64,000 nt of DNA from a virus (lineage: Duplodnaviria; Caudoviricetes): positions 1 to 64,000 of the IMG/VR virus record IMGVR_UViG_3300033066_001722. The stretch is one strand, 5' to 3'. Positions 10,473-62,917 of this stretch are shown piece by piece. The translations under genes and the position numbers were made by a program. The stretch's first letter is position 1. Each line of letters opens with the position of its first letter. The notes under the pieces are model-generated. The model had not been told where the DNA came from and searched no databases. It was given only the letters and a program-made list of their open reading frames with translations.

Positions 10473-10475
10473 CGT

Positions 10476-10712: not shown

Positions 10713-10740
10713 AGACTCCTCCGAGAGGAGGGACGCGAGG

Positions 10741-12213: not shown

Positions 12214-12244
12214 TTGGAACCTCTGTGGCTTGCATCAGTAGCCA

Positions 12245-44293: not shown

Positions 44294-44792
44294 CGACGTC
44301 TCCCGTTCCACCTGTACGAGATGCTGCTCCGTCTCGGACATCCTTGAAGTTCACGACAGTATCTTCGACCACCTCAAATACGACCGACGCCGATGCGTGC
44401 TCTGGGTGTCCGCTCGGGTTGAACGCTGTGTGGTACTTCAAACTCACACTCTTGATCAGTCCGACTAGCTCGACGAACTCTCCGAAGATCAGAAGAACGT
44501 ACGGTACCGTCTGCTCCACGACGCCATGTTCGTTGTCAGGATAGGTAAGCGCGAGCAGACGGTCTGTAGCCTTCGAGACCTCATCTTCTTCAGACCCATA
44601 TCGGGCGAATTCCAACGTGAAGTTGTAGCTGTGTTCCGATACAGGACCAGGTCGATTCCGAGGATTTGAGTGAAGGGGCACAGGCGAGGAAGCTGTGTTC
44701 ACAGCACGCTTCACTTCAATATCCTCTGGGAGGTACTGAAACGTCACCTTCGATTGATCTCGAAGGTCGACGATATAGCCTTGGTAACTCAT
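44286..44792 (-). CDS. tail tube initiator-like protein
   Basis: VTFQYLPEDI, LIFGE...IKSVSLKY..F..SG.P..ASASVVF. Confidence 0.75.
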   Translation of the reverse strand: MSYQGYIVDLRDQSKVTFQYLPEDIEVKRAVNTASSPVPLHSNPRNRPGPVSEHSYNFTLEFARYGSEEDEVSKATDRLLALTYPDNEHGVVEQTVPYVLLIFGEFVELVGLIKSVSLKYHTAFNPSGHPEHASASVVFEVVEDTVVNFKDVRDGAASRTGGTGDVDG

Positions 44793-46042
44793 ATCTCCAG
44801 CTCTCCTGAAGTCCAGATGAAGCGTGTACTGAGTTCACGATCTGTAGTCGGCCTACGACGCGCCTCATTGAGCTTCTGTTCGTTTGTGAGAGAAGCTCGA
44901 ACGATGACCTCATCGCCATACTCTTTGACCTCATGGATCTTGAAGGCAGAGCCTCGAGGGAGTAAGAATTCATTCAGAGGATGCTTACCTCCGTTCGCAA
45001 AGAGTGCACCCTTTGTCCCCTTAGGGAGATCGAGCTCAACTCGAACAAGCTTCTTCTCACCTCGTAATTCATACTTCATGTAAGGTTTGAAATCGCCTCC
45101 CGGCAATGATGTTGAGACGTAGCCATGATCCCGAAAGACCTTACCAGGACGTAGCTTGCTTAGCAGATCACTATCTGCCGCGAGATACCTCCTTACGGTC
45201 GTATCCTCCCTGAGAGGCGTCTTCATTGCCGAGTCTAGATGCTGTACAGCTCTTCGAATCTCGTCAAGATTGATATCCTTGCGAACCCCTGTCTCATCAC
45301 TCGGGTGTACAACTACACCTGCACCATCTCGCAGAGCACGATTCATCCAGCTACTACCTGACCCCTGATAGTAGAGCTGAGCTGCCTTTTCATCTTTCGA
45401 AAGTGAATGCCAATGACCCTTTGCATAGGCTTTGAATTCTCGCACCTCAGGTTTGGACCAGCTACGAAAACTCACAGCCATCTCCTCTGCGTCCTTAGCC
45501 TCCCAGACCTTACCTTCCTTGTGATACTGTTTCGCGAGCTCGTCAAATGCCTTGGCAGCCTTCAGATTAGCTGATTCAGTGGAGAGACGGTCTGCCTCTC
45601 GCAGTAGATATTGCGCACGATCTTTCAGCTTCTTTGGCTCGGTACCTGCTGCACGATGCTGCATATCTGATTCGAAATTCTTCTCGCTGAAGCCTCGTGA
45701 CTTGATCTCTCGCATCAGTATCTTCTGTACAGAAGTATCTGGTTTCGCCTGCCACTCTCGTAGCAGCTCTTCGTCTGAAGCAAGTGCGTACCTTACCTCC
45801 TCCAGAGGTATCTTCCTACCGTCTGAAGTGTACGCATGTGGTCCTTCGACCTTAGCGATCTTTACGAGATCTCCCTTCGTATCTTCAAATTCAGCTCCTA
45901 CATACTTCGGTTCTGATCCTTGAAGACTCTTCACCAACTTCTGTGGCCCTGCCTTGATCTCGCCGTCATCGCCGATGAGTACAGGTGTACCGTTCATCGT
46001 GACCCAGCCTTCAAGAAGGAGACTCTGTAGGTCTTTGATCAT
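44789..46042 (-). CDS. tagged putative virion protein with a C-terminal ADP-ribosyltransferase domain (R-S-E clade, VIP2/Alt-like)
   Basis: Start at ATG 46042 (ATGA with the tape measure stop). N-tag LLLEGWVTMNG; ART motifs YQGSGSSWMNRALR, TVRR, YVSTS, NEFLLPRG. Confidence 0.85.
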   Translation of the reverse strand: MIKDLQSLLLEGWVTMNGTPVLIGDDGEIKAGPQKLVKSLQGSEPKYVGAEFEDTKGDLVKIAKVEGPHAYTSDGRKIPLEEVRYALASDEELLREWQAKPDTSVQKILMREIKSRGFSEKNFESDMQHRAAGTEPKKLKDRAQYLLREADRLSTESANLKAAKAFDELAKQYHKEGKVWEAKDAEEMAVSFRSWSKPEVREFKAYAKGHWHSLSKDEKAAQLYYQGSGSSWMNRALRDGAGVVVHPSDETGVRKDINLDEIRRAVQHLDSAMKTPLREDTTVRRYLAADSDLLSKLRPGKVFRDHGYVSTSLPGGDFKPYMKYELRGEKKLVRVELDLPKGTKGALFANGGKHPLNEFLLPRGSAFKIHEVKEYGDEVIVRASLTNEQKLNEARRRPTTDRELSTRFIWTSGELEI

Positions 46043-48312
46043 GGGATAGCGCCTCCTCCGCCACCTTCCTTGTGACGACGCTGCTGAACGTCGTCGAGAG
46101 CCTCTGCGAATGCTCCTGCTATCAGCTTCTCGTTCGGACGGTTGTTCGTCATATCTCGACGGAGTCCTCTGATCTCGTCGCGTAGATCTGTACTTCCACG
46201 CTCGACACCTGCAGGCCCACCTCCTGGTCCGGAAACTGCTGCTACAGCGCTCACGTTCGAGTTCGCAGCCAGTGCACCATCCGCTGTCGGATTGCCTGGA
46301 GTATAGCTGAATCCTTGCACACTCCCTACGTCTGCAGTCCACTTGATGGAGGCGATGTTCTGCCAAGCTCCCTGGACGATATCTTTCATCTTCGCTGGGT
46401 TCCACGTCTGAGCTAGCTGTGCCAGCGCGTCTATGACGTAGAAGACAGACTTTCCAATTCCGTCGATCACTCTCCACAGGGTAATGAAGACGTCGATGAC
46501 AGAACGGAAGATCATCGCGATCACCTGTCCGGCTGACGACAGCCTCATGAAGCCCGGTGTGAGGTTTCCTGTGATCACGTAGGCTATCACATTCGATAGC
46601 TCCCCAAAGATCGAGATCACCCAGCCTATGACCTGGAAGATGTCTCCCATGACGTTGAGTGCGAAGATGAAAGCGTCGACGAGGAAGTTGACGACGACGA
46701 TCACGAAGTCGATCGAACGCTTCGTTCCATCCATCTGGTTGGAGACGAGCCCGAAGGACTGTCCGACATCCACAAAGATCTGGAATAGACGTCCCCAGAC
46801 CGTCAAGAATCCTTCCATGACTGGTTGGAGCGCTCCTGCAACACGTCGCCACTGACCTAGGATGAAGCTCAACGCGCTCTTCACGTAGTCAACGATCGAG
46901 CCCAACCAGCCTCCGACGTTGACGACCCACTCGAAGATGCCTGCATTCTGCAGAGCCTCTGCAGTCTCTTGGGAGAGCTCAGCTGTGCCATTGGACCAAG
47001 AGGTGATGACCTCCCATAGCCCAACCACTGCATACCGGATCCGGTCGATCAAGGTCGCGAAGCCTCCCCAGTTCTCCATGTAGGCTCGATAGAACACGTA
47101 CCCTACCGCCACTAAGGCCCCGATGATCGCCACGACAGTCGCGATTGCAGCAGCGCCTGCGAGTATGGCGGGAATGGCCAAAACGATCACCTTCAAGAAC
47201 AGACCTACGGCGATTGCCGCAGAGAGCAGTGCTGCTCCAGCAGTGACGAGAGCAACGGCATAGGCTCCCCAGATCACAACCGTCTTGAAGATCTCTCGAT
47301 GCTCGGTGATGAACCCAACGAGGAATCTTGCGACCTTCAGGCCCTGCTGAACGAAGAACGTGACCTGGACGCCGATCTCCTTGAAGACCTCACCGATGGC
47401 CTCGAAGAGGGGCTTGTTCCGCTTCACCTCGATGGCGAACTTGTAGACGTCACTCAACAGCGGGACCATAGCGTCCTGAAGTGGCTTGCCCATCTTGCCC
47501 AGGATGTCGTGCCCGATGTCTTCGATGTTCTTCGAGAGCTCGTTGAAGGCCATGTCTGTGATGTTCGACATGCCACCGAACTTGTTCTGGACGAGCTGTG
47601 CGACGGTCTCAAACTTCTTCTGCATCCCATGAGCACTGGCGATCGCCTGCTTCTCCCAGGACTTGAGAGGTGCACGAGCGAAGAGTCGTCCGATTAGCTT
47701 CTCCAGACCCTTCGCGTTCTTCCCACCCATGCTGAAGGCGCGTGCCATCGTCTGCTGCATCGCGCCTAGAGACTGGCCGGTGAATGCTGAGAGGTCGTCG
47801 AGAGACTCCAGCGCTGTGATCGATTCTCCAGTGGCTGACTTGACCTTCGCAAGGGCGTCGACGCCCATCTTACCCATAGAGAGTACGAATCCAGCAGCCT
47901 CCTTGAAGGCGAATCCCGCGTTGTCTGCTGCCTCCTCAGTCTTCTCGAAGGTCTCGACGGCCTTGTCCTTGAAGACGATCTGCATCTGCTTCAGGGTATC
48001 GTCCATGTCCGCAGCAGCATGGACTGCGCGCATGACGAAGTCTTTCCCCTGGTTGAGTATACCCATCCCGAAGGCAACGACCTGATCAAGACTCTCCTTG
48101 GCATGCTCAATAACCGCAGAGAGTGTGTTGCCGGCTATGGCCTCGACACTCTCCTTGACCTGCTTGCCAGTGTCCTCCGCAGCGCCTGCGATGTTCGCGA
48201 GTGCATCCTTGAACTCGTCGAACTTCTGCTGCCAGTCTTCCATGACTGTCAGCCGGACACCTGCGTCGAATGCGCCTTGAGCTTCGTCTTCCACGGCTAC
48301 AGATCCTTCCAC
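46039..48312 (-). CDS. tape measure protein
   Basis: About 750 aa, helical, with hydrophobic W/F-spaced repeats. Start at 48312 or 48294. Confidence 0.88.
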   Translation of the reverse strand: MEGSVAVEDEAQGAFDAGVRLTVMEDWQQKFDEFKDALANIAGAAEDTGKQVKESVEAIAGNTLSAVIEHAKESLDQVVAFGMGILNQGKDFVMRAVHAAADMDDTLKQMQIVFKDKAVETFEKTEEAADNAGFAFKEAAGFVLSMGKMGVDALAKVKSATGESITALESLDDLSAFTGQSLGAMQQTMARAFSMGGKNAKGLEKLIGRLFARAPLKSWEKQAIASAHGMQKKFETVAQLVQNKFGGMSNITDMAFNELSKNIEDIGHDILGKMGKPLQDAMVPLLSDVYKFAIEVKRNKPLFEAIGEVFKEIGVQVTFFVQQGLKVARFLVGFITEHREIFKTVVIWGAYAVALVTAGAALLSAAIAVGLFLKVIVLAIPAILAGAAAIATVVAIIGALVAVGYVFYRAYMENWGGFATLIDRIRYAVVGLWEVITSWSNGTAELSQETAEALQNAGIFEWVVNVGGWLGSIVDYVKSALSFILGQWRRVAGALQPVMEGFLTVWGRLFQIFVDVGQSFGLVSNQMDGTKRSIDFVIVVVNFLVDAFIFALNVMGDIFQVIGWVISIFGELSNVIAYVITGNLTPGFMRLSSAGQVIAMIFRSVIDVFITLWRVIDGIGKSVFYVIDALAQLAQTWNPAKMKDIVQGAWQNIASIKWTADVGSVQGFSYTPGNPTADGALAANSNVSAVAAVSGPGGGPAGVERGSTDLRDEIRGLRRDMTNNRPNEKLIAGAFAEALDDVQQRRHKEGGGGGAIP

Positions 48313-49283
48313 ATATAGGGTGCTTGATCTGCGTCACCCTCCTCGACTTGATAGCCGAGTTTGCGCCAGACTGCGGGACCGTCTTGTTCTGCGAGTAGCT
48401 GAATACGCTTCACACCTAGACTGCGCAGGAGATTCTCCTCGTGCATCGTCCAAGCACGTGCGAGTCCCTTACCTCGATGACCTTCTTTGGTTGTATACCA
48501 GTTCCGAGTTGCGGTCTGCCCGCTTATGGAGGTTGTACCCTCTGCGGCAATCTTGCCATCCCGAGCGAGGAGCTTGAACTCATATCCTGGCTTGCTGTCT
48601 CCTTCTTGGATCTGAGAGAATCTAATCTCTCCTAACTTATAACCTTGATGCTCGAAGGTGCTGAGCTGTCGGACGACTGCCTTCGGATCTGGACCTCTGT
48701 AATCGTTCGAGACTTCGACCTTCTCTTCCCGATTCGGTGTCCCCTTGAGAGGTCTTGTGTCTCCAGTCGCACGCAAGAGTCCTAGGTTGTACTGACGCTT
48801 GATCTCCTTCGCGATCTGCGATACCTCTCCATGGCGGAGAGGGATGCCCTGGAAGCCACCCGTCTGGTTCAGTCTCACTGAGGTCTTGTGGACGATACCG
48901 TCGACATTCGGGATAGGCTGACGCAGCCCGTTCCAGTCAATCGTCTGGTCGACGTCCTTCCAGACCTCTGCGAAGAGGTCCTTGTTACGCTGCTGAGCCT
49001 GATGAATGATGCGATCGGCATGGTCTAGGGTCGGCTTCTTCGGCATCACATGTGGATTGCCGTACTGGTCTGTCAGGATCCACTGCTTGCCCTCTTTGGT
49101 AAGCTCCGCACCGTTGGAGGAGACGTATCCACCGTCCTTCTGCTCCCACTTGTGAAGTGGCTGTAGATCCTGCTTCACACGTTCTGGTCCTGCCTTGATC
49201 TCTCCGTCGTCACCGATGAGTACAGGCGTACCGTTCATCGTGACCCAGCCCTCAAGGAGTAACGTGTGGAGATCTTCGATCAT
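48297..49283 (-). CDS. tagged putative virion protein with a C-terminal GNAT acetyltransferase
   Basis: Same N-tag as the ART gene; acetyl-CoA motif EGHRGKGLA, RSLGVKRIQL, AVWRKLGY. Confidence 0.8.
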   Translation of the reverse strand: MIEDLHTLLLEGWVTMNGTPVLIGDDGEIKAGPERVKQDLQPLHKWEQKDGGYVSSNGAELTKEGKQWILTDQYGNPHVMPKKPTLDHADRIIHQAQQRNKDLFAEVWKDVDQTIDWNGLRQPIPNVDGIVHKTSVRLNQTGGFQGIPLRHGEVSQIAKEIKRQYNLGLLRATGDTRPLKGTPNREEKVEVSNDYRGPDPKAVVRQLSTFEHQGYKLGEIRFSQIQEGDSKPGYEFKLLARDGKIAAEGTTSISGQTATRNWYTTKEGHRGKGLARAWTMHEENLLRSLGVKRIQLLAEQDGPAVWRKLGYQVEEGDADQAPYMWKDL

Positions 49284-49530
49284 CGCTTTTTCTTGGATTG
49301 ATTCTGAGCCTTTTCCATCCGGCTACGCATGTCCTCGATAACCCGGCTCCGAGATTCGAGGAATAAGCGTCTCTCTTGCAGAGATAAGTCTAGAATGTCG
49401 TGATCGGAGAGGTGGAAATCTCCGAACGAGAGCGCCATTCGTTGTTCGACTTGCTCTGCGAGAGATCCCGCAAGGGCCATGAAGGCCTGCTGCTTGATCA
49501 GCGCTACTCTGCGGGGTCCGGAATCCAAAA
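49280..49530 (-). CDS. tail assembly chaperone, frameshifted C-terminal extension (gpT-like)
   Basis: Open -1 frame overlapping the chaperone 3' end; FHLSDHDILDLSLQERRLFL. Confidence 0.6.
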
Positions 49531-50328
49531 ATCCGAGGAACCCATCTCGAATCTGGCTTGATACTGGTTGCGGCACTGCTTGCAGGTCATGTTGACGCGC
49601 GTATCGACGCCACAACCGGCTTTGCCGATCTGCGTGCGCATGTGGAGTCGGTCACGGGTATGAGCCTTCTCCCAGAAGATGTCATGCCGACGCTTGCCAC
49701 TGGGGCTCGTGTCTCCATCGAGACATACGGTCGTCAGCTCCAGAAGCTTCGTGATCGCTCCTGGGTCGTTGTCTTGAACAAGGCGGATCGCATTGGCCTG
49801 ATCTCGGACCTTCAACAGCCGGAACTCAACGACGCGGCGCGACTCCGGCAGGGTCGTCTGTAGCAGCGACGGACTCTGCGTGAGGTGGTCTGCCGGGATG
49901 TCCGAGAGATCAAGGGCGAGCTCGTCTGTCAAGTCCTCCGGCATCGTGCGCTTGCCGTCGAAGAGATGGCAGTTGCACTCTGCATTCCCACAGCGCATGA
50001 CTTGGATCGTCGCGCGTCGGAGGTCGATGGTATACTTCTTGGGTGCGCATCCCTTATGCGTCTGTTTGACCTCGTAGGATGGTCCGAGAGACGCCATCCG
50101 GATCAGATAGAGCAGGTGGACTTGCTCTCCGACATACATCTCTCCCTGAACTTCTGCGTCCGGTAGAGGATGGTCCTGCTCGTCTCGCACCAGCGCCTGG
50201 ATCAGGCGACGATTGATTGCCAAGTTCTCGATCGCGTTGTTCGTACCGTCCAAGAGCCAGCGCTCGTGGACTCCAGTCATCGACCCGATCAGGACACGAC
50301 GACCTGTGTTTGTGATAGCTGCAAGCAT
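49504..50328 (-). CDS. tail/baseplate assembly chaperone (gpG / gp26-like)
   Basis: LLYLIRMASLGPSY, CGVDTRVNMTCKQC, ends ...SDFWIPD; upstream of the tape measure. Confidence 0.75.
   Translation of the reverse strand: MLAAITNTGRRVLIGSMTGVHERWLLDGTNNAIENLAINRRLIQALVRDEQDHPLPDAEVQGEMYVGEQVHLLYLIRMASLGPSYEVKQTHKGCAPKKYTIDLRRATIQVMRCGNAECNCHLFDGKRTMPEDLTDELALDLSDIPADHLTQSPSLLQTTLPESRRVVEFRLLKVRDQANAIRLVQDNDPGAITKLLELTTVCLDGDTSPSGKRRHDIFWEKAHTRDRLHMRTQIGKAGCGVDTRVNMTCKQCRNQYQARFEMGSSDFWIPDPAE
49528..49534 (-). other. putative -1 programmed ribosomal frameshift site G_GAT_TTT
   Basis: In-frame heptamer near the chaperone 3' end that links to the open -1 frame. Confidence 0.6.
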
Positions 50329-50488
50329 GTAGTCCTCCTGTTGCGGTAGGACGCTACGGCTAGGCCGACGTTTCGTGGTTGGTTTGAGACTTCAACGCAG
50401 GGCTCGCCAGGATCGACAGGAGCAAGCCTCTGACTTTGAGGGAAGGCACGGGCAAGGTGGAGGCGGTCAAGCTAGGCTGCTGTCGAGT

Positions 50489-51223
50489 CTAGCGTAGGCG
50501 GTATGTACGTGCGGCGTTCTTCTTGAGCCAGTCCTGGCCTTCGAGGTAGCGGTTGTGGTCAGAGACGCGTCCTCGCAACTCCTGCATCAACTCGTCGGAG
50601 CGTGCGCTGTGCCCGTTCTGACGAGTATGGTCTGCGAGTTGGTCGAGAGCCTCGACGCTCGCCTTGCGCGCCTTCTCGTGCGCCTTGTCCAGGTCTGGGC
50701 CAGTCTTCGCCTTCGCCGCTTCCTCGGAAGCTCGTCGCGCAACGTTCGCCTTCGCCTCGACATGATCCGGAACGGCTGACGTCTTGATGTCGACACTCGT
50801 ATCGGGGACGTATCGACCAGTTCGCTTACCGTCGATCAGCTCCGCAACGACAGGACGATGCTGGATTGCCGCAGGACCTGCGACGTCTCCAGCTGCAGCT
50901 GCTGCAGTTCCCTTGTACTCCCGCGTCCAAGCAGCACGCTCTGCTCCTGTTGAGTTCGAGAGACGCTCGAGATGATCAGCAGCCTGATCGTGCGCCTTGG
51001 CTCGATACTGCTTGTCCTCCCGCTGCTGCGGGTCCTTCTCCTTGCGAGCGTCTGCTCGCAGGCGAGAGCCTTCATCTCTGTGACCTTGAGGAGTCATCTT
51101 CCGCAGAGCGGGAGGGCCCTTGACGACTTCACCGTTGTCATCCAGCTCGATGTGGGTACCGCTGGGTAGCGTGACCCACCCTTCCGTGAGCAACAGTGCT
51201 ATGTCTGCGACGTGCCCAGCCAT
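50489..51223 (-). CDS. tagged putative internal virion protein (charged, helical)
   Basis: N-tag LLLTEGWVTLPSGTHIELDDNGEVVKGP; Ala/Lys/Glu/His-rich body. Confidence 0.75.
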   Translation of the reverse strand: MAGHVADIALLLTEGWVTLPSGTHIELDDNGEVVKGPPALRKMTPQGHRDEGSRLRADARKEKDPQQREDKQYRAKAHDQAADHLERLSNSTGAERAAWTREYKGTAAAAAGDVAGPAAIQHRPVVAELIDGKRTGRYVPDTSVDIKTSAVPDHVEAKANVARRASEEAAKAKTGPDLDKAHEKARKASVEALDQLADHTRQNGHSARSDELMQELRGRVSDHNRYLEGQDWLKKNAARTYRLR

Positions 51224-51225
51224 GA

Positions 51226-51702
51226 CTAGACTGTGACACGACGGTAGCGATCACAAGAGATCTCGACCGTCTCGATTGCAGCTTCGGCATCCTGCATGCT
51301 GGAGCGTTCGCCGTGTGAGTCCTTCACGGGGAAGCAGCCCTCGCACTCCCACTTGTCGATGATCTGATCGCTGTCACCCTTGTCGATGATCGTCAGACCA
51401 CGCTTGTAGCGTGCGGCTCCGATACTCTGCCCCGTCTCCGGATCGCGGACCTGACGCATCCAGTCCCAGAAGAAGGTATCGCTCGAGTTCGCAGGCATCA
51501 CCTTCTTCAGCGTGATGTTGCCGAACTTCCAAGCGCCTGCAGTCTTCTGCTTCGTCGCACTGCCTGGAGGCGCGTGCTCGACTGTCCCGAGCTCAGAGTC
51601 TGGGATCGAGACAGACTGGACGAGCGCAACGGGTAGACCTTCGCACTCGACGAGGAAACGAAATGTCTTCCGTGGATCAACTTCTTGAGCTTCGATGGCC
51701 AT
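51226..51702 (-). CDS. tail tube protein (gp19-like)
   Basis: DPRKTFRFLVE, GNITLKK, FWDWMRQV, IETVEISCD. Confidence 0.92.
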   Translation of the reverse strand: MAIEAQEVDPRKTFRFLVECEGLPVALVQSVSIPDSELGTVEHAPPGSATKQKTAGAWKFGNITLKKVMPANSSDTFFWDWMRQVRDPETGQSIGAARYKRGLTIIDKGDSDQIIDKWECEGCFPVKDSHGERSSMQDAEAAIETVEISCDRYRRVTV

Positions 51703-51708
51703 AGGGAA

Positions 51709-53979
51709 TTACTCCTCTCCGACGCTGGCAGCAGAGCTTGTCACGATGAACCGAACCTTGAACTCTCGCGCAGGCCGGTATGGGCTGATATAGAGTTCCG
51801 CGTTGACCTCGCCACGTTCGATCGAGTCCGCCGTCTGCAAACGAGCTTGCTCCATCGAGGCTGCACCCTGGTCGATGTCGAACCGTGCACTCTCGATCCA
51901 GTCCTGACGCTTCAGCGTCGTCAGGAACTTGTCGACCTCACGTGCGACTGCACGCCAGAGGGCCGGACGGTTCGGCTCATAAATCTTCTTGCGGATCACG
52001 GTGATGATCCGCTGCTCCAGATAGATCAAGATGCGACGGACGGATGTCCACTGGAAGGCTGTCGTCCCGTCACGGCGCAGCGTGAAGGCATCGCCGAAGG
52101 TCACATAGCCGTCCTGGCGCAGGACTGTGTTGACATGGTTGTCGTCGGACAGCTGCTTGAGCTGCGCACGCTTTCCACTGGGGCCAAGGTCGTACGGGAT
52201 GTCGTCGACGATCATACGACCCTTCACGCCTGCGGGGCTGAAGTGCGGACCGTAGTCACGGACGTCGAGCTTGCCCTTGCCGGTGTCGCACAGGTTCAAG
52301 GAGACAGCCAGATCACCAGCAGGGAAGATGAAGAGCGTGCCCTTCGTGATCGGATCCGTCACCTGGACCGTACCCGCATAGAGACATCCATACGAGGAGT
52401 CGAAGTTCGTCCCGCTGTGCGCAGCCTGTCCTCGCCGGTAGTCCTCGATGTCCTGAACGTCGGCTGCAGTCTGTAGCTCTCGGAACAGGTGGACCAGCAT
52501 ATCCTGCCGATCTTCGGCCCACGCCAGCAGTGAGGCTGCCGTCGCATTGGAGACCTCGTAGGGCAGGATCATATCCTGACATTCCGTACCCGAGATCTCG
52601 CCGAGGGCATGGACACCTGTCCCTGCCGAAGAGTCGCCGACGATGTCAGCCTCGACGAAGCCTGCCAGACCGTCGTTGCCACCAGCCAAGGTGTAGGTCC
52701 CGAGGGCAGGACGCTTTTCAGCGAGCGTACTGCCCGTCGAGGCGAGGTCTGCCAAGGAGATATAGGCAGAGCCGTTTGTCAAGCTGTTGACGATCGTCAG
52801 TGCGTATCGTGCCGAGTTCGGATCCATACTGAGGTTGGACCAGCGCTCTGCACTTGCGATCCCACGCTGCGCAGGGACAACCAGCGTGAACTGGTCGGCT
52901 GCGTCTGTGTTGCTCGTGGTGACCTGCACGGTCCAGCCTGCCGAGTAGGTCCCTGCGTACTTACCAAGGACCTTCAGCGTCGGCGATGTGGCAGAGTTGG
53001 AACCGTGGGAGCGTCCACCTGAACCCTCCGTGAAGCCAAGGGCGACAGCAACGGTCGAAGTGGCAAGCACACCCAGATAGGCAGATGCGCCGCTCGCTCC
53101 GGTATAGACGACGTCGAGCTTGCCGTCGATGTTCGACGGTGTCAAGGTCGCCTCACCTGCTGCTGTGATCCACGTCACAAGCTCGTCTGTCGAGACCTGT
53201 GCGAGATCCTTCGCGCTGCCATTGCCGGAGTTCGTCGTCGTCGGGAAGTTCAGGATCGCATTCGCCGTGCCACCAGTCACGATGACACGAGAATCTGTCC
53301 CGTAGAAGTCCGAGACCAGGGTGACCTTGGAGCCTGCCGAAGACGGCACGGCGCTCCCGTAGAGCATCGTGTTGAGCTTCGCAGCCACCTCTTCTGCTGT
53401 CGGAGCTGCCGGATTGGCGAAGTCCCCGTTCACAAAGGAGATCGACTGCTCTGGGTAGTTCACCTTGCCGACCTTGAAGGTCAAGGTCGTGCCAGGCAGA
53501 CCTGCGTAGTTCTCCGCGGACCCAGACTCGACGCTGGCCTGCGTGCCCGCCAGCGTCCGGTCTGGCCCGGACGTTCCATTCCGGTCGAAGATGAAGTGTC
53601 CGCCGATGACAGAGACCAGGTTGAACGGCCCTGCCTGCGACGTCCGTAGCCGAGGATGCGTCGCACCTGCCTGTCGATCGCTGATGCTGATGTACGCCTG
53701 TGCCGCTGCGGTCGACGAGGCGTCTGTCGGATCCGAGTAGTGCACCAGACGCACGATGACGAGGCGCGCACCGCCATCCAGCGCACGCTTGGCCTGCAAC
53801 GGACCCGTCTCCGTTGCCAGCAGACCTCCGTAGACGCGCTGGAACTCGGGCCAGGAGTTGATCTTGGTCGCCTTGAGAGGCCCACGCTCCGTCTTCAACA
53901 GCATCGCATAGAAGCCGGCGATCTCTGTGTTCGGAGAAAACGTCGCGTCCGTCTCGGAAATGTATACACCGCTGGGCAT
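51709..53979 (-). CDS. tail sheath protein
   Basis: PSGVYISE, ERGPL, SFAEF-like SWPEFQRVYGG, VRRILIYLE, YEPNRPALW. Confidence 0.93.
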   Translation of the reverse strand: MPSGVYISETDATFSPNTEIAGFYAMLLKTERGPLKATKINSWPEFQRVYGGLLATETGPLQAKRALDGGARLVIVRLVHYSDPTDASSTAAAQAYISISDRQAGATHPRLRTSQAGPFNLVSVIGGHFIFDRNGTSGPDRTLAGTQASVESGSAENYAGLPGTTLTFKVGKVNYPEQSISFVNGDFANPAAPTAEEVAAKLNTMLYGSAVPSSAGSKVTLVSDFYGTDSRVIVTGGTANAILNFPTTTNSGNGSAKDLAQVSTDELVTWITAAGEATLTPSNIDGKLDVVYTGASGASAYLGVLATSTVAVALGFTEGSGGRSHGSNSATSPTLKVLGKYAGTYSAGWTVQVTTSNTDAADQFTLVVPAQRGIASAERWSNLSMDPNSARYALTIVNSLTNGSAYISLADLASTGSTLAEKRPALGTYTLAGGNDGLAGFVEADIVGDSSAGTGVHALGEISGTECQDMILPYEVSNATAASLLAWAEDRQDMLVHLFRELQTAADVQDIEDYRRGQAAHSGTNFDSSYGCLYAGTVQVTDPITKGTLFIFPAGDLAVSLNLCDTGKGKLDVRDYGPHFSPAGVKGRMIVDDIPYDLGPSGKRAQLKQLSDDNHVNTVLRQDGYVTFGDAFTLRRDGTTAFQWTSVRRILIYLEQRIITVIRKKIYEPNRPALWRAVAREVDKFLTTLKRQDWIESARFDIDQGAASMEQARLQTADSIERGEVNAELYISPYRPAREFKVRFIVTSSAASVGEE

Positions 53980-53982
53980 GGT

Positions 53983-55463: not shown

Positions 55464-55762
55464 ATGACGACCTTGATCAAAGAGGAGATCACCGAGATGA
55501 TCTTGTTCGCTGCGCTGCTGATCCGAGCCTGTTGTGCGCGCTCCGTCTTCTGCAGCTCCGCCAGTAGATTGCTCGACGCCTCGAGATCATCAATGGCCAG
55601 GTCGAACGAGACCCTTCCGTCTGCCAAGCTTGTCAGTAGATTGACCGGACTGGCGCTCTTGCGGACGAGGTCTCGTAACATCGTCATGATGCGCGCCTCC
55701 TCATCTCCTTCTGGACGCAGCTCGTCTAGGTGCTTCTTGACGAGTTCATCTAGATTGCTCAT
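55460..55762 (-). CDS. hypothetical helical protein with a hydrophobic C-terminus
   Basis: 100 aa; ends KIISVISSLIKVVI. Confidence 0.6.
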   Translation of the reverse strand: MSNLDELVKKHLDELRPEGDEEARIMTMLRDLVRKSASPVNLLTSLADGRVSFDLAIDDLEASSNLLAELQKTERAQQARISSAANKIISVISSLIKVVI

Positions 55763-56094
55763 TTGCTGACCTCACAGTAGGAATCGACGCTCGGCACCAC
55801 AGGAGGATCTGTGCTTGGCGCTGGCATCGCCACCGTTCGGCTGAGGTAGAGCGCCATTTGCTGATGCCAGGGACCTCTGGCCTTCACGACAATCGCGTCC
55901 GCGGCAAGCGCCTTGCAACGGGCCTTGTCGCCCTTTGCCGCGGCTTCCTTGGCTTCTGTCAATAGCGTCGTAGACGTCTTCTCAGCAGCTTTGCCGAACC
56001 ACTTGACCTCCGCCTGGAGCACGTCGATGTTTCGGCTCGTCAGATTGCAACCAGCTAGCCAAACGGCACACACGATCAGTAGAAGGTTCCGCAT
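55759..56094 (-). CDS. lipoprotein
   Basis: MRNLLLIVCAVWLAG|C lipobox; Pro-rich C-terminus. Confidence 0.75.
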   Translation of the reverse strand: MRNLLLIVCAVWLAGCNLTSRNIDVLQAEVKWFGKAAEKTSTTLLTEAKEAAAKGDKARCKALAADAIVVKARGPWHQQMALYLSRTVAMPAPSTDPPVVPSVDSYCEVSK

Positions 56095-56109
56095 AGGAGG
56101 TAGGGTAAA

Positions 56110-56280
56110 TCAGTCCAGCCGTCTCAGGAGATCTTCCGAGGAGAGGCTCTGCATCCGTCGTAGGACATCATCCCATACTCTCGAAGCTTGACGTGACTCA
56201 CGACGTACCTGTTCGATATCCGCAGTCGTGATATGAGGTGGCGGAGGCAAGTCTAGCGCTAGCTTTGGCTTCCTGATCAT
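56110..56280 (-). CDS. small hypothetical protein
   Basis: ATG 56280 in an ATGA overlap; 56 aa. Confidence 0.5.
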   Translation of the reverse strand: MIRKPKLALDLPPPPHITTADIEQVRRESRQASRVWDDVLRRMQSLSSEDLLRRLD

Positions 56281-56960
56281 ACAGGAGAGAACGGTACCCG
56301 CGAGACGCGCGTCCGGAAACTGTCCTCCCACTCTTTGACGAGTGACTGGAGGATCGAGTTGTTCACGGAGAATGAGCTCACACCGAAGTTGACCTGCGCG
56401 AACTTCGAGCGGAGAGCGAGCAGCGTCTGACCAGCGTAGGCTCTAGTGATGAGGCGGAGCTCTTCGAGGTAGCGTAGAGGGAAATTCTCCCGCTTGTGTG
56501 CGACGTATGCATAGGCGCTGATCGTCGACCCTGGCTCGATAGCGCCGACGAGAGCAAACTGACCTCCCTGGTTCTCCAGGAAGCTTTCACTCGCGTCGTT
56601 GGCGACCTCTGCTGCGTAGAGAGACAAGTAGTCATCAGTGGAAGTCGATGGCTCGCTACTCACGGTCAGCCCACCGATCGCAGGTGCACCCCTCAACGAG
56701 GTAGCCAGGATAGCCAGGATGATCTCGTCAGGGGGATCAAAATCACTCACGTCGTAGATGAACTTGTCGACTTCTGTCGTGAGCTGGACACGCATCGTAC
56801 GAGGCTGGAACTTCGAGAACTCGAGGAGTCCTCGGTCGACAGCGTCGTAGATGTCTTGATAGCTGAGCTCTCGATCTGAGGGAGAGCCTAGTGCGGAGCG
56901 GATCTCCGCCTCGAAGGTTGAGGCGACGCCAGGTGTCGTAGAGATGAGAGGGTTAGGCAC
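56277..56960 (-). CDS. head-tail adaptor / neck protein
   Basis: ELSYQDIYDAVDRGLLEFSKF; position after the major capsid gene. Confidence 0.65.
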   Translation of the reverse strand: MPNPLISTTPGVASTFEAEIRSALGSPSDRELSYQDIYDAVDRGLLEFSKFQPRTMRVQLTTEVDKFIYDVSDFDPPDEIILAILATSLRGAPAIGGLTVSSEPSTSTDDYLSLYAAEVANDASESFLENQGGQFALVGAIEPGSTISAYAYVAHKRENFPLRYLEELRLITRAYAGQTLLALRSKFAQVNFGVSSFSVNNSILQSLVKEWEDSFRTRVSRVPFSPV

Positions 56961-56982
56961 GGTAGCTCCTCAGCTGAGGAGA

Positions 56983-57411
56983 CTACTTCGCAGCGGTCTC
57001 CTTCTTCTCCTCGACGATAAAGTCGTTCGAGGCCAGGTTGCCGGTCAGCTCATACAGCGCACGAGGCTCACGCAGCCGACGCCCTCGCAGGTTGTCGTAG
57101 GCGCGGTAGGGCTCGGCCCAGGCATTCTGGGGCTCCGCCATGAACATGAAGTCGATGTGGCGGTACGACGCGCTCATGAACAGCTCACCGGGATGGATCG
57201 TCACGCTGTTGTTGACGCCACCTGCGAGCGCATTGATGACCTGATCGATCGTCGAGACGTTGACCATCAAGATGTTCGGCTTGTCCTCCGGACACGCCAG
57301 GACATGCTCCTGGCCCATGACGGTTCCGAGACGGACCTTGTGGTCCTTCGATCGGCTCGCACCGAGCATCGTGATGAGTTCTTGGGCGGACAGCTTCAGT
57401 AGATTGGCCAT
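56983..57411 (-). CDS. hypothetical protein (possible head accessory)
   Basis: 142 aa with an AAGGAG RBS, directly after the capsid gene. Confidence 0.65.
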   Translation of the reverse strand: MANLLKLSAQELITMLGASRSKDHKVRLGTVMGQEHVLACPEDKPNILMVNVSTIDQVINALAGGVNNSVTIHPGELFMSASYRHIDFMFMAEPQNAWAEPYRAYDNLRGRRLREPRALYELTGNLASNDFIVEEKKETAAK

Positions 57412-57438
57412 AGGGTGACTCCTTACCTAGATAGACGA

Positions 57439-57472
57439 AGAGCCCGGCTAGTGGTTAGACCAACCGGGCTCT
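57439..57472 (-). terminator. strong hairpin downstream of the major capsid gene
   Basis: AGAGCCCGG...CCGGGCTCT 9-bp perfect stem followed by TCGTCT; weak U-tract. Confidence 0.45.
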
Positions 57473-57595
57473 CCATCTCCTGAGGTACTGCCGACGGGGT
57501 GATCGGACTCAGGCGCTGATCTCAGCAGATCTCAAACGCCGCAAGCCAGAGGCCTGAAACTCGATCTACCGGATCGCATCCCGTTGAACGGGCGA

Positions 57596-59086
57596 CTACG
57601 TCAGGGTGACGGTCGCGAAGGCCTTCGCGTTGATGCACTTCTTGCCGGCACGAGACAGCACGCCCTTGCTGTACTGGAAGTTGGCCGACGGATCCGGCAT
57701 GGTCGGGGTCCAGGTCAGCAGCGAGTATGGCGCAAAGACCGCTGCCATGTACATGGGGTTGTCCGCCTTGTAGCCCAGCAGGATCTTGCTGGCGGGCATG
57801 AAGGGGTCCATGTAGACCTGCGTGGTGCCGCTGTTGACGGTGCCGAACAGGATGCGCTTCTCCAGCGTCGCCGTGTTGCTCACGCCGATGCCACCGCGAT
57901 CGACCGACGAATCCAGCTGGCGGAAGCCCGAGATCAGGCGCAGCCGTTCGGCGGCATCACTGCCGGCGATCAGCCAGTTGGCCCGTGCATTGCCGTTGGT
58001 CGCCTTCCAGATCATCTGATCGGCCTTGATGATCGCCTGGCCCAGGGTGGCCTCGTAGGCCAGCCGACTCGCGGTATCGATGTCACCGGCCAGATAGCCG
58101 GCGGTGCTCCAGTTGACGTTGCCAGCGCCGTTCATCGCGGCTTCGACCAGCATCATCCGCACCAGCTGCCGGTCGATCTCGCGATCGAGCTGGTTGCTGG
58201 CTGCATCGACCATCTCCTGCTCCAGGTCGCCGTTGTGATAGGCACCGAAGTCCTGGCGAGACTGCTCGGTGAACAGGAAGCGCAGCGTCATGTCCGTCGC
58301 GGTCAGCGTCTCGCTGGTCATCTTCATGTCCAGCTCACGCGGCGTGTCGCCTTCGGCATAGGTCGCGTACATGACCTTGATCTTGGCATTCAGCGCCGGA
58401 GCGACACCGAAGATCACACGGCCACGCCCGTTCACACCACCATTGTCGACGGTGAAGTCGGTCGTGTGGGTCTTCTCGACTCCGTTCACGAAGACGCGGA
58501 CGCGGCTGCTCGAGAAGGCACCAGCAGTGGCAGTGGTCTTGACCGCGGTCGTCTCGACGACGAAGGTGGTCGTGACACCGTCACCGGTGAAGCTCTCGGG
58601 CGACTCACCCCAGCCCGAGTAGTTCGGGTCGACGGCCTGATCCAGGCGATCCGCAGCGGTCGTCGGATACTTGGTCGAGGCATAGCGGTGATCGATATAG
58701 AAGATCTTCGCCTCGGGTGTGGTCATCGGCCACACGGTGCACAGACTGCGGGCGTACAGCTGGATGTACAGTCGGCGGATCAAGGGCAAGGCCACCTTGA
58801 CGAAGGGCTCGACCGCCGAGGTCGTGACGGCCTCGCGCAGCTCCTTCGGCGACATGCTCAGCGCCTTGCGCCCCAGGCCCAGCCCGGTGTGAGACGCCAG
58901 CTCATTGACGTGACGCTCCAGCAGCAGCTCCAGGCCGATGCGACATCCCATGCCGTAGGCTTCCTGGACGTCGACGAGCTTCAGGCTCTTGTCGGCACCG
59001 TAGCCGGTGTACATCGACCACTTCGAGGCACGATCGGGATTGTGAACCAGCCACGGGATGCGCGGCTCTTCGGTATGCGTATACAT
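57596..59086 (-). CDS. major capsid protein (T4 gp23-like)
   Basis: PLIRRLY...LCTVWPMTTPEAKIFY, EQSRQDF..YHNGDLEQEM...DREIDR, FAPY, GVLSR; strongly biased codons. Confidence 0.93.
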   Translation of the reverse strand: MYTHTEEPRIPWLVHNPDRASKWSMYTGYGADKSLKLVDVQEAYGMGCRIGLELLLERHVNELASHTGLGLGRKALSMSPKELREAVTTSAVEPFVKVALPLIRRLYIQLYARSLCTVWPMTTPEAKIFYIDHRYASTKYPTTAADRLDQAVDPNYSGWGESPESFTGDGVTTTFVVETTAVKTTATAGAFSSSRVRVFVNGVEKTHTTDFTVDNGGVNGRGRVIFGVAPALNAKIKVMYATYAEGDTPRELDMKMTSETLTATDMTLRFLFTEQSRQDFGAYHNGDLEQEMVDAASNQLDREIDRQLVRMMLVEAAMNGAGNVNWSTAGYLAGDIDTASRLAYEATLGQAIIKADQMIWKATNGNARANWLIAGSDAAERLRLISGFRQLDSSVDRGGIGVSNTATLEKRILFGTVNSGTTQVYMDPFMPASKILLGYKADNPMYMAAVFAPYSLLTWTPTMPDPSANFQYSKGVLSRAGKKCINAKAFATVTLT

Positions 59087-59126
59087 CTCTCAAATCCTCC
59101 TGGGATGCGTTGATCTCTTGGGTTGG

Positions 59127-60470
59127 TTAGCGCCGAGCTCCCGACAGCCGTGCTTCGTGCTCGTCGAAATCCTTGGCTCGCAGTGCGTCGCCATCTGCCT
59201 GGCTGTGACCACGCTGGGTGGAGACGCCTGTCGCCTCCAGCAGGGCCTTCTGACGCTTGACAGCCTTCAGGGCCTCCTCGACGGAGTTCGGGAACTCCAC
59301 ATCGCCATAGGCCTCGGTCAGCTGCTTGCCGACGCGGACGCCGCCCTTCGCAGGGTTGGCACCCAGCACAGCGACCTGCAGCATCTCCGCCAGCGGATGA
59401 CCCTGCGTCGCTTCCATGACTGCGGCCTTGACCTGGCTGCGCACGCGCTCGGAGCGGACCTCCTCCAGGAGGGCGCTGTTGGCGCGGTTCTGCGACATCT
59501 GCTCATTCAGCTGGCGCTTCGTCGACTCCAGCTCGTCGCGGATCAACGCGACCTGGGTGTTCGTCGCCTCGTTCAGGTTCGCTGACTTGTCGTTGGCCGT
59601 CCGCAAGGCTTCGGTCAGATTCTCGATGCGATTCAGCAGCGGAGCCTCGGCAGCCTCGCGAATCGCCTCCTCACGTGAGGCCACTTCGACTTCGGCCAGC
59701 GACGTCAGGACTCGCCGCGACAGCTGCAGCGCCTCCGTGATCAGCCCCTTGTAGGTATCCGGCACGAGCTTCCGTAGCTCGAGTACGTTCTTCGTGTTGA
59801 GAGCGCCGAAGACTTCAGGCGCGTTCTCCTTCAGCCATTCGAGCTTGATGTCGCCTTCCGGCAACGTGATGGTCTTGGGCATCTTCCTTGACTCCTGCAA
59901 TGAGGTCATCTTGGCTGTGCTGACAGAGGGATTCAGGACGAGATCCCATCCTCGCAGCCGTAGATCCTTCTGGACAATGGAACCACGCTGACCGTTGATC
60001 TCTCCCTCTTGCACTGTCCCCTGCGCTCGACTGCTGACGCCGAGAGGTACACCTAGGCGGGCGAGCGCCAGGACATCTCGTCCTCGTGCTGTGTCCGGGA
60101 TGAGGAAGACGCCATTGGCGATCTTCTTCTGTGCCTCGTCAAGGTCGTAGTCCTTCAGGACCACTGCGACCTCGCCTGCGCGATATCCCTGGTCGTCCGC
60201 TGGGTGCCCATCGAATCCTGGGACTGGCTCATTCGCCAGGACCTTGCCCTTGAAGTCCGCTGCGACTTCACGCAGCGTGTCCCACGGGTAGATCCGCTTG
60301 TTCTGATTCAGCCGATCGCCCTCTTGGATCGTCGCGAACCGCAGGATCCCGATAGAGCCAGGAGGTAGCTTGGGCTTCGTCCCCTCCTGGAGCTCCTGCT
60401 CTTCGAGGCGATATTCCTTGGTGATCAGTACTTCGTTGAGATCTTGTGCAGCCACCCTGTGGACTATCAA
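59127..60470 (-). CDS. prohead protease (gp21-like) fused to scaffold
   Basis: NQNKRIYP, DGHP, LGVSSRAQG, WDLVLNPS, then a coiled coil rich in LxE(A). Start possibly GTG 60455. Confidence 0.9.
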   Translation of the reverse strand: MIVHRVAAQDLNEVLITKEYRLEEQELQEGTKPKLPPGSIGILRFATIQEGDRLNQNKRIYPWDTLREVAADFKGKVLANEPVPGFDGHPADDQGYRAGEVAVVLKDYDLDEAQKKIANGVFLIPDTARGRDVLALARLGVPLGVSSRAQGTVQEGEINGQRGSIVQKDLRLRGWDLVLNPSVSTAKMTSLQESRKMPKTITLPEGDIKLEWLKENAPEVFGALNTKNVLELRKLVPDTYKGLITEALQLSRRVLTSLAEVEVASREEAIREAAEAPLLNRIENLTEALRTANDKSANLNEATNTQVALIRDELESTKRQLNEQMSQNRANSALLEEVRSERVRSQVKAAVMEATQGHPLAEMLQVAVLGANPAKGGVRVGKQLTEAYGDVEFPNSVEEALKAVKRQKALLEATGVSTQRGHSQADGDALRAKDFDEHEARLSGARR

Positions 60471-60507
60471 TACTGGGTGCGCTGAATCATAGAGACTTGG
60501 GAATGGC

Positions 60508-61248
60508 CTAGGCGAGTTCAGCTTCCAGTTCAGTCTGGGTCATGAGCGGGAATCTGAATCGTAAGGTAGAGACGTCTGAGGTGTCTTCGCCGCGTTGTGC
60601 GAGAGACTTTCTCCACTTGCCCCAGTATGATGAAGATTCATCGATCAACATCTCACCTTTCGGTCGAGTACGATCGAATACCTTAACGAACGGGTTTGAT
60701 GTAGTGTGACCAGCTACAGTATGAGCATAGACGGAGAGATCGAACTCTTCGACGAGATCATCGAAGATCCTCTGAGCTGTATCCACAGAAGAACAAGCGT
60801 AGAAGATGATCTTAGGCGAGGAAGACGAAGCCTGGCTTTGAGAGGAAGACGAAGCAGTGGAGTAGATTTGAGCTTCTGATGAGCAAAGCGAATCAGAAGC
60901 GATTGGAAGCGACGCGAAGCGGAGCGCAATGCGAAGCGCACTGACGGCATTGGGGTACTCCGGTGTGCGGGGATCAAGTAACTGGGTTGCATTCGGCCAA
61001 CCATGCATCAAGAACGCAAGATAGTCGAGCGAACCGACCTCACGAAAGAAGTCGGTGATCTGTTGCATACGGTTCGAGATAGGTTGATCGATGTCAACGC
61101 GTAGCGTACGCGGATACCCTGCCGAGATGGGCTTGGTCTGTAGGAAGCGTCCGAGCCGTTCAGACTCTGGCTTGAACGCTCCCTGGAAGTCGTGCTCGTG
61201 CTGATTGCGATCGGGCGTGATAATGATAGGACGTTGCGGCTGGTACAT
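60508..61248 (-). CDS. hypothetical protein with a caspase-like His-Cys dyad pattern
   Basis: YLAFLMHG...KIIFYACS...VYAHTVAGHTTSNP. Confidence 0.55.
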   Translation of the reverse strand: MYQPQRPIIITPDRNQHEHDFQGAFKPESERLGRFLQTKPISAGYPRTLRVDIDQPISNRMQQITDFFREVGSLDYLAFLMHGWPNATQLLDPRTPEYPNAVSALRIALRFASLPIASDSLCSSEAQIYSTASSSSQSQASSSSPKIIFYACSSVDTAQRIFDDLVEEFDLSVYAHTVAGHTTSNPFVKVFDRTRPKGEMLIDESSSYWGKWRKSLAQRGEDTSDVSTLRFRFPLMTQTELEAELA

Positions 61249-61270
61249 CAGGAAGCCTCCTTACGGAGGA

Positions 61271-62917
61271 CTAACCTGGGAACCGCTTACGGACCTTCTT
61301 GGTGAAGCGGTCCTCGAGCGCCGTGTGATCCTTAACCGCCTTCTCGTGGGTCTCAGCGGACTTGTGATCACCAGCCTGTCGCGCAGCGATCGACGCGATC
61401 GCGTGTGCTTCCTTCGCCGCCTTGTGGCTGTTCACGCGATCGATGTCAGTAGATGCGGCTGTAGCCTTCGAAGAGGCCTCGACAGCTTTGTTGGTCGCAG
61501 TCTTCGCCACATAAGCCTTGTGTGCGGCAGCCTTGGTCTCTTCTGAGTCTGCAGAGTCGTGATAGTTGCGATTGTTGCGTTTCTTGCTGTCGACGCGTGC
61601 TTGCTGGACTTGCTTCTCCTGTGCAACGTTAGCAGCGTGACGCGCGTTGAGCCCCGGATCCCCTTGAAGCGTCTTGTCGTTGTAGGCTGCTCGCGCCGCT
61701 TGCGTCGCGTCTGTCGCCTTCGACAAGGCTTCCGCACGCTTCCTCTCCTCATACGCTTTCTCTGCTGCAGCCTTGGTTTCTTCTGTATCTGCCGAATCGT
61801 AGTAGTTGCGACTACGTGATTTGGAGGCTTTCGTCGCATCATCCGATGCCTTCGGAGCCAGCGCCATCTTTTGCTTGTTCGAGATGCGCTCAATCTGGCG
61901 CTCCTGGTCGGTCTTCGGCAGGTGCCCGAAGTTCTTCTCGATGTGCGCACGAGACGTCTTGTCGATCTCGTCGAACTTCTTATGGAGGTCCTCATGCCCA
62001 GGCTCTGGTCCGAATCCGTTCTTGTGCTGGACACGTGCGATGTGGAACTCCTTCTGTGCGGGAGTGCCTGACGTCTTCTCTTCGACGTGCCGACGGATCT
62101 CTGCAGCCTTCTCAGTCTTCTGATCCTGATCCTCTCGCTGCTCGTTGCGATGAGCTTTGACCACGTTGCGGAAGGCGCTGTTGAATACTTCCTTCGGATT
62201 GACCTTGTTGAGGTCATCTCCGCTTCTCGCAACGGTGTCAGCGAAGTGCCGCCCTGCGCTCGAGTCCAGGAACGCTCGTATTTCGTCGTCGCTGTGCCCT
62301 GCAGGAGCGTTGGACTTCAGCCAGCTGTGGGCCTTCGCGTAGTCAGCTTTGATCGCCGGATCGTCTTCGCTCTTCCCAAGATGCTTGGTCGTCTGGAGTT
62401 CACCGTGGTAGCCTCGCCCAGGATTCTTCGTCTCGATCTCGGGTTTGTCCAGATGCTGGCGTAGGAGGTCCTCGACCTCCTTCTTGTTCTGGCCACCTCT
62501 CTCTGGGATATGGTGGAACTCTCGATGAGTCTCTCCATCGGAGACTACAGTCTTACGAGGACCTCCGACAGGACCTTCCTGTTCAACCTTCAGCTCCTTG
62601 CCACCGTGCGTTAGGTAGAAGCGGTTGAAATTCGCCGTACCGACCTCAGGTAGGTTCTTTTTGTTCGGGTATGGCTTGTCGCTTCCCGCTTCAACTCGTC
62701 TCGCGCGATCACCGAGGGTTCCCTTCGGTCCACGATCGCGCCGAAGGGATTCGAGACCCTGCGAGGTCGCACGCTCGAAGCTCTTACCCTTGAGACCTGC
62801 GGGACCTCCTTCGACCTCGCCCGTTTCGTCGTTGATCATGATCCGGGCACCGTTAACGGTGATCCAGCCCTCAACGAGTACCTGTTCAACCTGATCTGTG
62901 ATGTTCTGCTGAGCCAT
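61271..62917 (-). CDS. tagged putative internal head protein with internal repeats
   Basis: N-tag VLVEGWITVNGARIMINDETGEVEGGP; two copies of RNY(Y/H)DSAD(T/S)EETKAAA(E/H)KAY; lies between portal and protease. Confidence 0.8.
   Translation of the reverse strand: MAQQNITDQVEQVLVEGWITVNGARIMINDETGEVEGGPAGLKGKSFERATSQGLESLRRDRGPKGTLGDRARRVEAGSDKPYPNKKNLPEVGTANFNRFYLTHGGKELKVEQEGPVGGPRKTVVSDGETHREFHHIPERGGQNKKEVEDLLRQHLDKPEIETKNPGRGYHGELQTTKHLGKSEDDPAIKADYAKAHSWLKSNAPAGHSDDEIRAFLDSSAGRHFADTVARSGDDLNKVNPKEVFNSAFRNVVKAHRNEQREDQDQKTEKAAEIRRHVEEKTSGTPAQKEFHIARVQHKNGFGPEPGHEDLHKKFDEIDKTSRAHIEKNFGHLPKTDQERQIERISNKQKMALAPKASDDATKASKSRSRNYYDSADTEETKAAAEKAYEERKRAEALSKATDATQAARAAYNDKTLQGDPGLNARHAANVAQEKQVQQARVDSKKRNNRNYHDSADSEETKAAAHKAYVAKTATNKAVEASSKATAASTDIDRVNSHKAAKEAHAIASIAARQAGDHKSAETHEKAVKDHTALEDRFTKKVRKRFPG

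Follow-up and report, generated by a model that had tools for sequence, protein, structure and literature searches.

A putative T4-like leader and a widespread peptide motif at the start of candidate head-loaded proteins in an uncultured wastewater phage

Why do four otherwise dissimilar proteins encoded in the virion module of one phage begin with the same short stretch of sequence? The question is raised by IMG/VR virus record IMGVR_UViG_3300033066_001722, the contig of an uncultured wastewater phage that carries nearly all of its genes on the minus strand. The window analyzed here is the first 64 kb (positions 1 to 64,000) of this 89.8-kb contig. A preliminary description of the window had taken the shared stretch for an N-terminal packaging tag on four unrelated proteins, and the translations, together with an alignment of the first 33-39 residues, confirm that four minus-strand open reading frames (ORFs) start with one module and have no similarity beyond it. 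L, E, G, W, T, G, D, G, E, G and P are invariant among the four tags. We argue here that the tagged proteins are probably T4-type cargo that would be loaded into the head, trimmed and injected, and that the tag consists of two elements, a separable leader and a header motif that would be retained on the mature protein. We put the probability of this reading at roughly 55%.

One module in front of different bodies

The bodies behind the module had been described as an ADP-ribosyltransferase (ART), a GNAT and two charged helical proteins. The first of these assignments holds. Cargo 1 (44789..46042, minus strand; 417 residues) consists of leader, motif and a VIP2/Alt-like ART domain, which matches PF03496 over residues 210-375 (E 2.4e-14) as well as PHROG families 3895 and 802 (Alt-like). 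Its tag (45944..46042, minus strand), delimited by the tag alignment and by profiles, is an 11-residue leader ending in L-L-E followed by a 22-residue GW...GP core. The ART motifs, as read from the translation with no structural check, are an Arg in V-R-R-Y, the stretch V-S-T-S-L and a Glu in N-E-F-L-L-P-R-G. Two residues ahead of this presumed catalytic Glu stands Leu, and not Gln or Glu, at the position that usually sets the target-residue specificity of ARTs. Cargo 1 is conserved in a relative. The gene was recovered nearly whole in four wastewater metatranscriptome runs of a single study, and one further run also contains it.

The second assignment is probable, though weakly supported. Cargo 2 (48297..49283, minus strand; 328 residues) carries a middle domain of ~145 residues between the motif and a C-terminal domain that is probably a GNAT; residues 229-312 match three GNAT-type Pfam families at E 0.005-0.1, every one below cut-off, and an R-G-K-G-L-A motif is present. 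The cargo 2 tag, located by tag alignment and profile, spans 49185..49283 on the minus strand. A close relative of the protein (182 residues, 82% identity) keeps the tag and the middle domain, and its C-terminal domain is gone.

For the remaining two bodies no Pfam family was found. Cargo 3 (50489..51223, minus strand; 244 residues) has a charged body of no known family in Pfam and PHROG searches, and an ortholog is present in a relative; alignment and profile place its tag at 51113..51223 (minus strand), with a 14-residue leader ending in L-T-E and a 23-residue core. Cargo 4 (61271..62917, minus strand; 548 residues) lies directly after the portal gene and matches PHROG 8020 (function unknown). 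By the same criteria its tag (62801..62917, minus strand) comprises a 16-residue leader ending in L-V-E and a 23-residue core. Orthologs of cargo 4 occupy the same position in relatives at 485 residues, i.e. 63 residues shorter, and no entry for it was found in the protein atlas. Its long charged helical body contains two copies of a repeat of ~20 residues, R-N-Y-[YH]-D-S-A-D-[TS]-E-E-T-K-A-A-A.

A profile built from the tags has exactly four matches in the window and two elsewhere on the contig (E 7e-9 to 8e-25), and a broader one, made from 218 instances, recovers these six contig copies without adding further or degenerate ones. Both additional copies lie outside the window: copy 5 is a tagged ORF of 79 residues (contig 78543-78782), and copy 6 is a tagged ORF of 253 residues (contig 77513-78274) whose protein, like cargo 3 and cargo 4, has no recognized family. 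The 3' end of the copy 5 ORF overlaps a 95-residue ORF in another frame (contig 78293-78580); a frameshift, either genuine or introduced in assembly, may have split a single tagged cargo gene here. In one other run, an identical contig of DNA type, probably the source, has no indel at copy 5. Among the contigs of four runs compared with the region of copies 5 and 6, this one alone matched, and the RNA runs gave no cover.

The leader and the T4-type head genes

The leaders of the six copies are 11-22 residues long, and all end in L-x-E, followed by G in five copies and by A in one. With the terminal Glu, present in 6/6 copies, numbered as position 0, hydrophobic residues stand at -6 and -2 in 6/6 copies and at -3 in 5/6. 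In T4 (record NC_000866) the internal proteins IPIII and IPII both begin with MKTYQEFIAE and then A. Mutagenesis of IPIII has shown residues 4 and 7 to matter for capsid targeting and residues 8 and 10 for processing (PMC9026906), and these residues correspond to leader positions -6, -3, -2 and 0. In T4, a leader with Asp in place of this Glu still targets its protein but is no longer processed.

The head genes encoded nearby are also of T4 type. The virion module, at 40-64 kb, is that of a myophage whose core genes are of T4 type. The major capsid protein (MCP; 57596..59086, minus strand) belongs to the T4 gp23 family (PF07068, E 3.4e-34; PHROG 138) and shares at most 25% identity with that of any cultured phage; an L-R-E-A stretch at its residues 83-86 precedes the Gp23 domain match, which begins at residue 94. 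The presumed processing enzyme is a gp21/S77-like prohead protease fused to a scaffold-like tail (59127..60470, minus strand), with matches to PHROG 207 (head maturation protease, E 5e-22) and PF03420 (E 4.9e-4). Protease and scaffold apparently form a single ORF, in which the protease-like part takes up residues 50-190 and the tail holds ~20 L-x-E sites.

That LxE sites occur in the MCP propeptide and throughout the scaffold had already been proposed, and this is correct. The protease-scaffold ORF contains 24 [LIV]xE sites, 13 of which are [LIV]xE[AG]; the latter pattern occurs there at 2.9 per 100 residues versus 0.32 for the contig, a ~9-fold difference. The same [LIV]xE[AG] pattern precedes all six motifs (its chance in a random 12-mer is P = 0.029). 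In copy 6, the L-L-E-A stretch is four residues apart from the acidic cap that belongs to the motif itself, so that in this copy the LxE site is conserved in its own right.

The remaining genes of the module encode sheath, tube, a 757-residue tape-measure-like protein, a tube-initiator-like protein and baseplate. The portal gene (minus strand) occupies 62921..64000 in the window and runs to contig position 64630; it matches PHROG 213, and the ortholog in a relative carries PF07230 (Portal_T4). An ORF of 111 residues in the head-tail module (55759-56094) has an N-terminal lipoprotein-like signal ending in L-A-G-C. CheckV estimates the completeness of the contig at ~36%, and the genome is therefore probably of jumbo size. 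Related contigs are present in other metagenomes, and a DNA-level search of cultured phages gave no close match to the contig.

The core motif in other phages

How far the module extends beyond this contig was addressed by the database search that the preliminary description had suggested. Against 1.84 billion representative proteins the profile found 332 bearers at E<=1e-3, with 22 at E<=1e-10; the per-bearer statistics given here are drawn from the 143 non-self proteins listed. The consensus of 218 instances reads acidic-acidic-x-W-V-T-I-N-G-T-H-V-L-I-D-D-D-G-x-I-x-K-G-P-x-x-L-x-G-K, in which W and T are conserved at 100%, three Gly at 93-97%, His at 81%, Pro at 78% and Asn at 52%. Self-cleavage of the motif, at Asn-Gly or N-x-T-H, is rejected because neither Asn nor His is invariant.

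It had been conceded that the motif might prove to be a known catalytic or structural domain unrelated to packaging, and no such domain was found. No Pfam family covers it, even at E<=10 on motif-only proteins and with the LPD models included; no PHROG family covers it in ten small bearers; and the tag profile gave nothing below E 0.19 against PDB sequences. A description of the motif was likewise absent from the polyvalent-protein papers (PMC5512222, PMC9503650) and from a text search for motif strings, and the sole match of a word-based protein search with residues 1-45 was a paralog. The AlphaFold2 (AF2) model of the tag, made from a 47-row alignment, predicts a leader helix at residues 3-10, strands at 13-16, 19-23 and 29-31 and a helix at 34-41, with a predicted local distance difference test (pLDDT) score of 76-78 over the core and a mean of 63. 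Neither Foldseek against the PDB nor VIA-align found a significant neighbor of this model, the best being choline-binding repeats (E 0.6, Z 2.3). A complex prediction for four tag copies (residues 1-48, own alignment), run without controls, scored 0.01 and speaks neither for nor against self-association.

The preliminary description had treated GW...GP as an N-terminal tag. This does not hold elsewhere, where the motif is also internal and repeated. Two to four copies are present in 63 of the 143 listed bearers, with a median spacing of 306 residues and a median of 247 residues after the last copy, and thus each copy heads a domain-sized stretch. Among 38 large bearers and 18 additional proteins examined with Pfam, the anchor domains are Phage_portal, Phage_portal_2, Phage_portal_3 and MuF. 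The effector domains comprise ADPrib_exo_Tox, ART-PolyVal, PARP, Zeta toxin, 2'-5' ligase/2H, InPase, NUDIX, Kinase-PolyVal, RelA_SpoT, His phosphatase, SNF2/Strawberry-notch helicases, topoisomerase I, LPD1 and an ATLF-type metallopeptidase. In the portal or portal plus MuF fusions inspected, the motif is always C-terminal to the anchor and N-terminal to the body: one protein has its portal domain at 107-460 and the motif at 529-556, another has a lambda-type portal at 80-454, the motif at 628-656 and then Kinase-PolyVal, and a portal plus MuF protein has motifs at 738 and 894. In unrelated phages, too, a genome can hold several tagged genes. Ten bearers whose origin was checked all come from metagenome sources or an NCBI assembly.

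What precedes the motif varies from phage to phage, as a comparison of 81 N-terminal bearers from other contigs makes clear. In some of them the motif stands almost at the initiator Met. About 35 small bearers have a second conserved leader directly ahead of the motif, a basic helix of the type K-Y-R-x-R-R-D-A-R-x-K-K-R-M-D-E-E, which may address cargo for loading in a different capsid lineage. A [LIV]xE[AG] site within 12 residues is found in 12 of the 81, including a V-L-E-A leader on a T4-type contig that carries gp13, sheath and gp19 genes. The flank is thus lineage-specific and the core universal, and it is for this reason that we divide the tag into two elements.

Two further observations concern individual bearers. 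On an unrelated phage contig, two leaderless motif-bearing genes (1183-2106 and 8935-9546) lie amid RecA and the 7-deazaguanine genes QueC, QueD, QueE and GTP cyclohydrolase and thus outside any structural module. In another phage, a motif-bearing ORF of 945 residues (9466-12300) contains a Hint/LAGLIDADG intein.

Proposed roles, alternatives and known systems

On the reading that we favor, the tagged genes would be the counterpart of T4 Alt and the internal proteins in a distant T4-type phage, their products being made late and taken into the prohead, then trimmed and finally injected together with the DNA. The leader, with the pattern hydrophobic(-6)-x-x-hydrophobic(-3)-hydrophobic(-2)-x-Glu(0)-Gly/Ala(+1), would be specific to this lineage and act like the T4 capsid-targeting sequence (CTS): it would bind the scaffolding core, and the gp21-like protease would cut after the Glu. 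What would remain on the mature protein is a three-stranded beta motif of ~30 residues. This motif would be a pan-phage "effector-unit header": in other phages it follows a portal or MuF anchor and precedes each effector, and in polyvalent proteins it separates one domain from the next. Since it opens every unit, it may have a part in release, ejection or cassette exchange, and we infer that it most likely serves as a junction for unit release or ejection readiness and for the exchange of cassettes. The fusions to portal and MuF argue that incorporation by itself does not require the header.

Associations lend good support to head packaging and injection, and the earlier proposal of a modular prohead cargo system survives to this extent: the head genes are of T4 type, the leader positions are IPIII-like, the ART is Alt-like, and elsewhere the motif is tied to head-anchored effectors. 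It does not survive in the form of a tag that is one unit.

Several observations weigh against the favored reading. Counted back from the motif W, position -2 is most often Glu and position -1 most often Gly across all phages; the two residues are therefore partly intrinsic to the motif, which weakens the LxE as an independent sign of a cleavage site. In five of the six contig copies the sole additional evidence for such a site would be the Leu at -4 in this numbering. The six tags are paralogous and hence are not independent samples, and the enrichment of [LIVM]xE upstream of the motif across all phages is modest (25% versus a background of 15%). In addition, the PF03420 (S77) match of the presumed protease is below the Pfam cut-off, and three of the four tagged genes in the window sit in the tail module and not in the head module. 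Finally, a tblastn search of 50,697 cultured-phage records with the tag, a 32-residue motif-only protein and two bearers returned no credible match.

A more far-reaching reading, which we regard as doubtful, is that the motif is a universal header of head cargo, independent of capsid type, and that it opens every effector unit destined to leave the capsid, be the unit a gene of its own, an extension of portal or MuF, or part of a polyvalent protein. The virion would read it at release or ejection and cut just upstream of it, the unit would enter the portal channel header-first, and the leaders would be a loading address only. Were this true, effector cassettes would be movable between unrelated phages, and the module would be usable as a portable ejection signal.

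It is unlikely that leader and core make up a single packaging tag, with the core binding a prohead component and so addressing cargo in all bearer phages. The idea would account for a core that is far more conserved than the leaders and that lies within 60 residues of the start in 84 of the 143 listed bearers, and also for those bearers that begin directly with the core and thus have nothing else to address them. However, the core is retained behind portal and MuF domains, which are already built into the head and by themselves ensure incorporation, and it is therefore unlikely to be merely a prohead address. A common structural receptor is also hard to name, because bearers span at least four portal families and because Gp23 and S77 went undetected in five of five other bearer phages (73-92% complete) with a search that does find Gp23 in this contig. 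Nor was a recurrent partner gene found beside the motif across 30 loci with short flanks.

A role in the host after injection, in which the motif would be a small domain that takes the effector to the incoming DNA, the entry site or a universal host factor, appears quite improbable. The strict DNA pattern of the motif occurs at 24 IMG/VR loci versus two contigs, both from metagenome-assembled genomes, in 185,579 prokaryote genomes; its near absence from genomes that are rich in the polyvalent proteins of conjugative elements argues for a role specific to the virion. A host-side function would agree with the constant company of effector-type domains and with the high conservation of the sequence across phages of different capsid types. 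In the predicted hairpin, moreover, W, T and H would share one face; yet the His is replaced in four of the six copies on the contig.

The motif might also have no binding role at all and serve as a structural spacer and a recombination junction that cassette exchange maintains, as with the pre-toxin motifs of polymorphic toxins. The comparison of cargo 1 and cargo 2 speaks for such exchange: over 23 codons the cores of the ART and GNAT genes differ at six sites, all of them synonymous, and both flanks diverge immediately. The bodies are highly varied, and the relative of cargo 2 has lost its GNAT domain behind the same tag. Nevertheless, the peptide is conserved across very distant phages in which the DNA is not, pointing to selection on the peptide itself, and we think it very unlikely that a spacer is all that the motif provides.

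The least probable reading, which we disfavor, is that the tagged proteins are cargo of the tail-tube lumen beside the tape-measure protein, as in extracellular contractile injection systems, which load cargo via N-terminal signals; cargo 1 to 3 are indeed interleaved with tail genes in an order that is kept in a relative (tube, cargo 3, two small genes, cargo 2, the tape-measure-like gene, cargo 1, tube-initiator-like gene), but cargo 4 follows the portal gene, the two further copies are far from tail genes, the motif is fused elsewhere to head-internal portal and MuF, the leaders fit a head-protease site, and siting between late structural genes also simply gives late expression.

To our knowledge, the selection, loading and ejection of proteins by phages are understood in detail only for the 10-residue CTS of T4 and a few other cases. 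The phage described here combines a T4-like leader with another, far more widespread peptide, which marks effector units in hundreds of uncultured phages. A motif read by the virion would offer a sequence handle for injected effectors, including anti-defense enzymes, in metagenomes, a testable account of how polyvalent proteins divide into units, and a candidate portable signal for phage protein delivery. Even if the motif is merely a junction or spacer, it would still be a useful annotation marker of capsid cargo. The preliminary description had seen in the tag a possible programmable protein-delivery signal, which is not new as an idea, since delivery through the CTS is already established for T4: the CTS principle, the CTS loading of GFP, nucleases and other proteins, and the idea that T4-like phages carry diverse proteins via a CTS have all been published (PMC3012670, PMC9026906), as have head-packaged ARTs and effectors fused to portal or MuF (PMC5512222, PMC9503650). 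The apparent novelty lies in this motif, in how widely it occurs and in its being joined, in solo genes, to a T4-like leader.

Four known systems invite comparison. Like choline-binding and CROP repeats, the motif is modeled as a beta-hairpin and has G-W, G, G and G at the same intervals over 21 residues, a likeness that we treat as a lead only. The Foldseek match (E 0.6) extends over 18 columns and is non-significant, Pfam CW_binding_1 does not match at E<=10, the aromatic residues of the choline cage are aliphatic here, and there is a single copy per unit.

The pre-toxin junctions of polymorphic toxins, VENN of CdiA and DPxGL of Rhs, are similar in plan, being short conserved peptides between a constant delivery part and swappable effectors. 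They differ in sequence and in the delivery machine, and the Asn and His of the motif described here are not invariant.

The closest parallel to the leader is the T4 CTS of IPI-III together with the propeptide of Alt, which is packaged in the head and clipped by gp21 (PMC9026906). In both cases unrelated proteins carry a short N-terminal leader that ends in hydrophobic-x-Glu and is followed by a small residue, the hydrophobic residues of the leader stand at the positions identified by IPIII mutagenesis, and here they occur together with a gp23-type MCP, a gp21-like protease and an Alt-like ART. The leaders of this phage, at 11-22 residues, have no sequence homology to that of T4, and behind the predicted cut they are followed by a motif of ~30 residues that T4 internal proteins do not have.

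The closest parallel to the motif-bearing proteins at large is provided by the polyvalent and portal- or MuF-fused effectors of Iyer et al. (2017, PMC5512222; 2022, PMC9503650), for which many domains have been named, among them LPD1-40. The proteins of the window differ from these in being solo, with at most one recognizable effector and no fusion to portal or MuF. Motif bearers as a whole and the proteins of Iyer et al. share a repertoire of ART, Zeta, 2H, InPase, NUDIX, kinase, RelA/SpoT and SNF2 domains and the same inferred logic of proteins that would be made late, carried in the head and injected, and it is proteins of this very kind that the motif punctuates.

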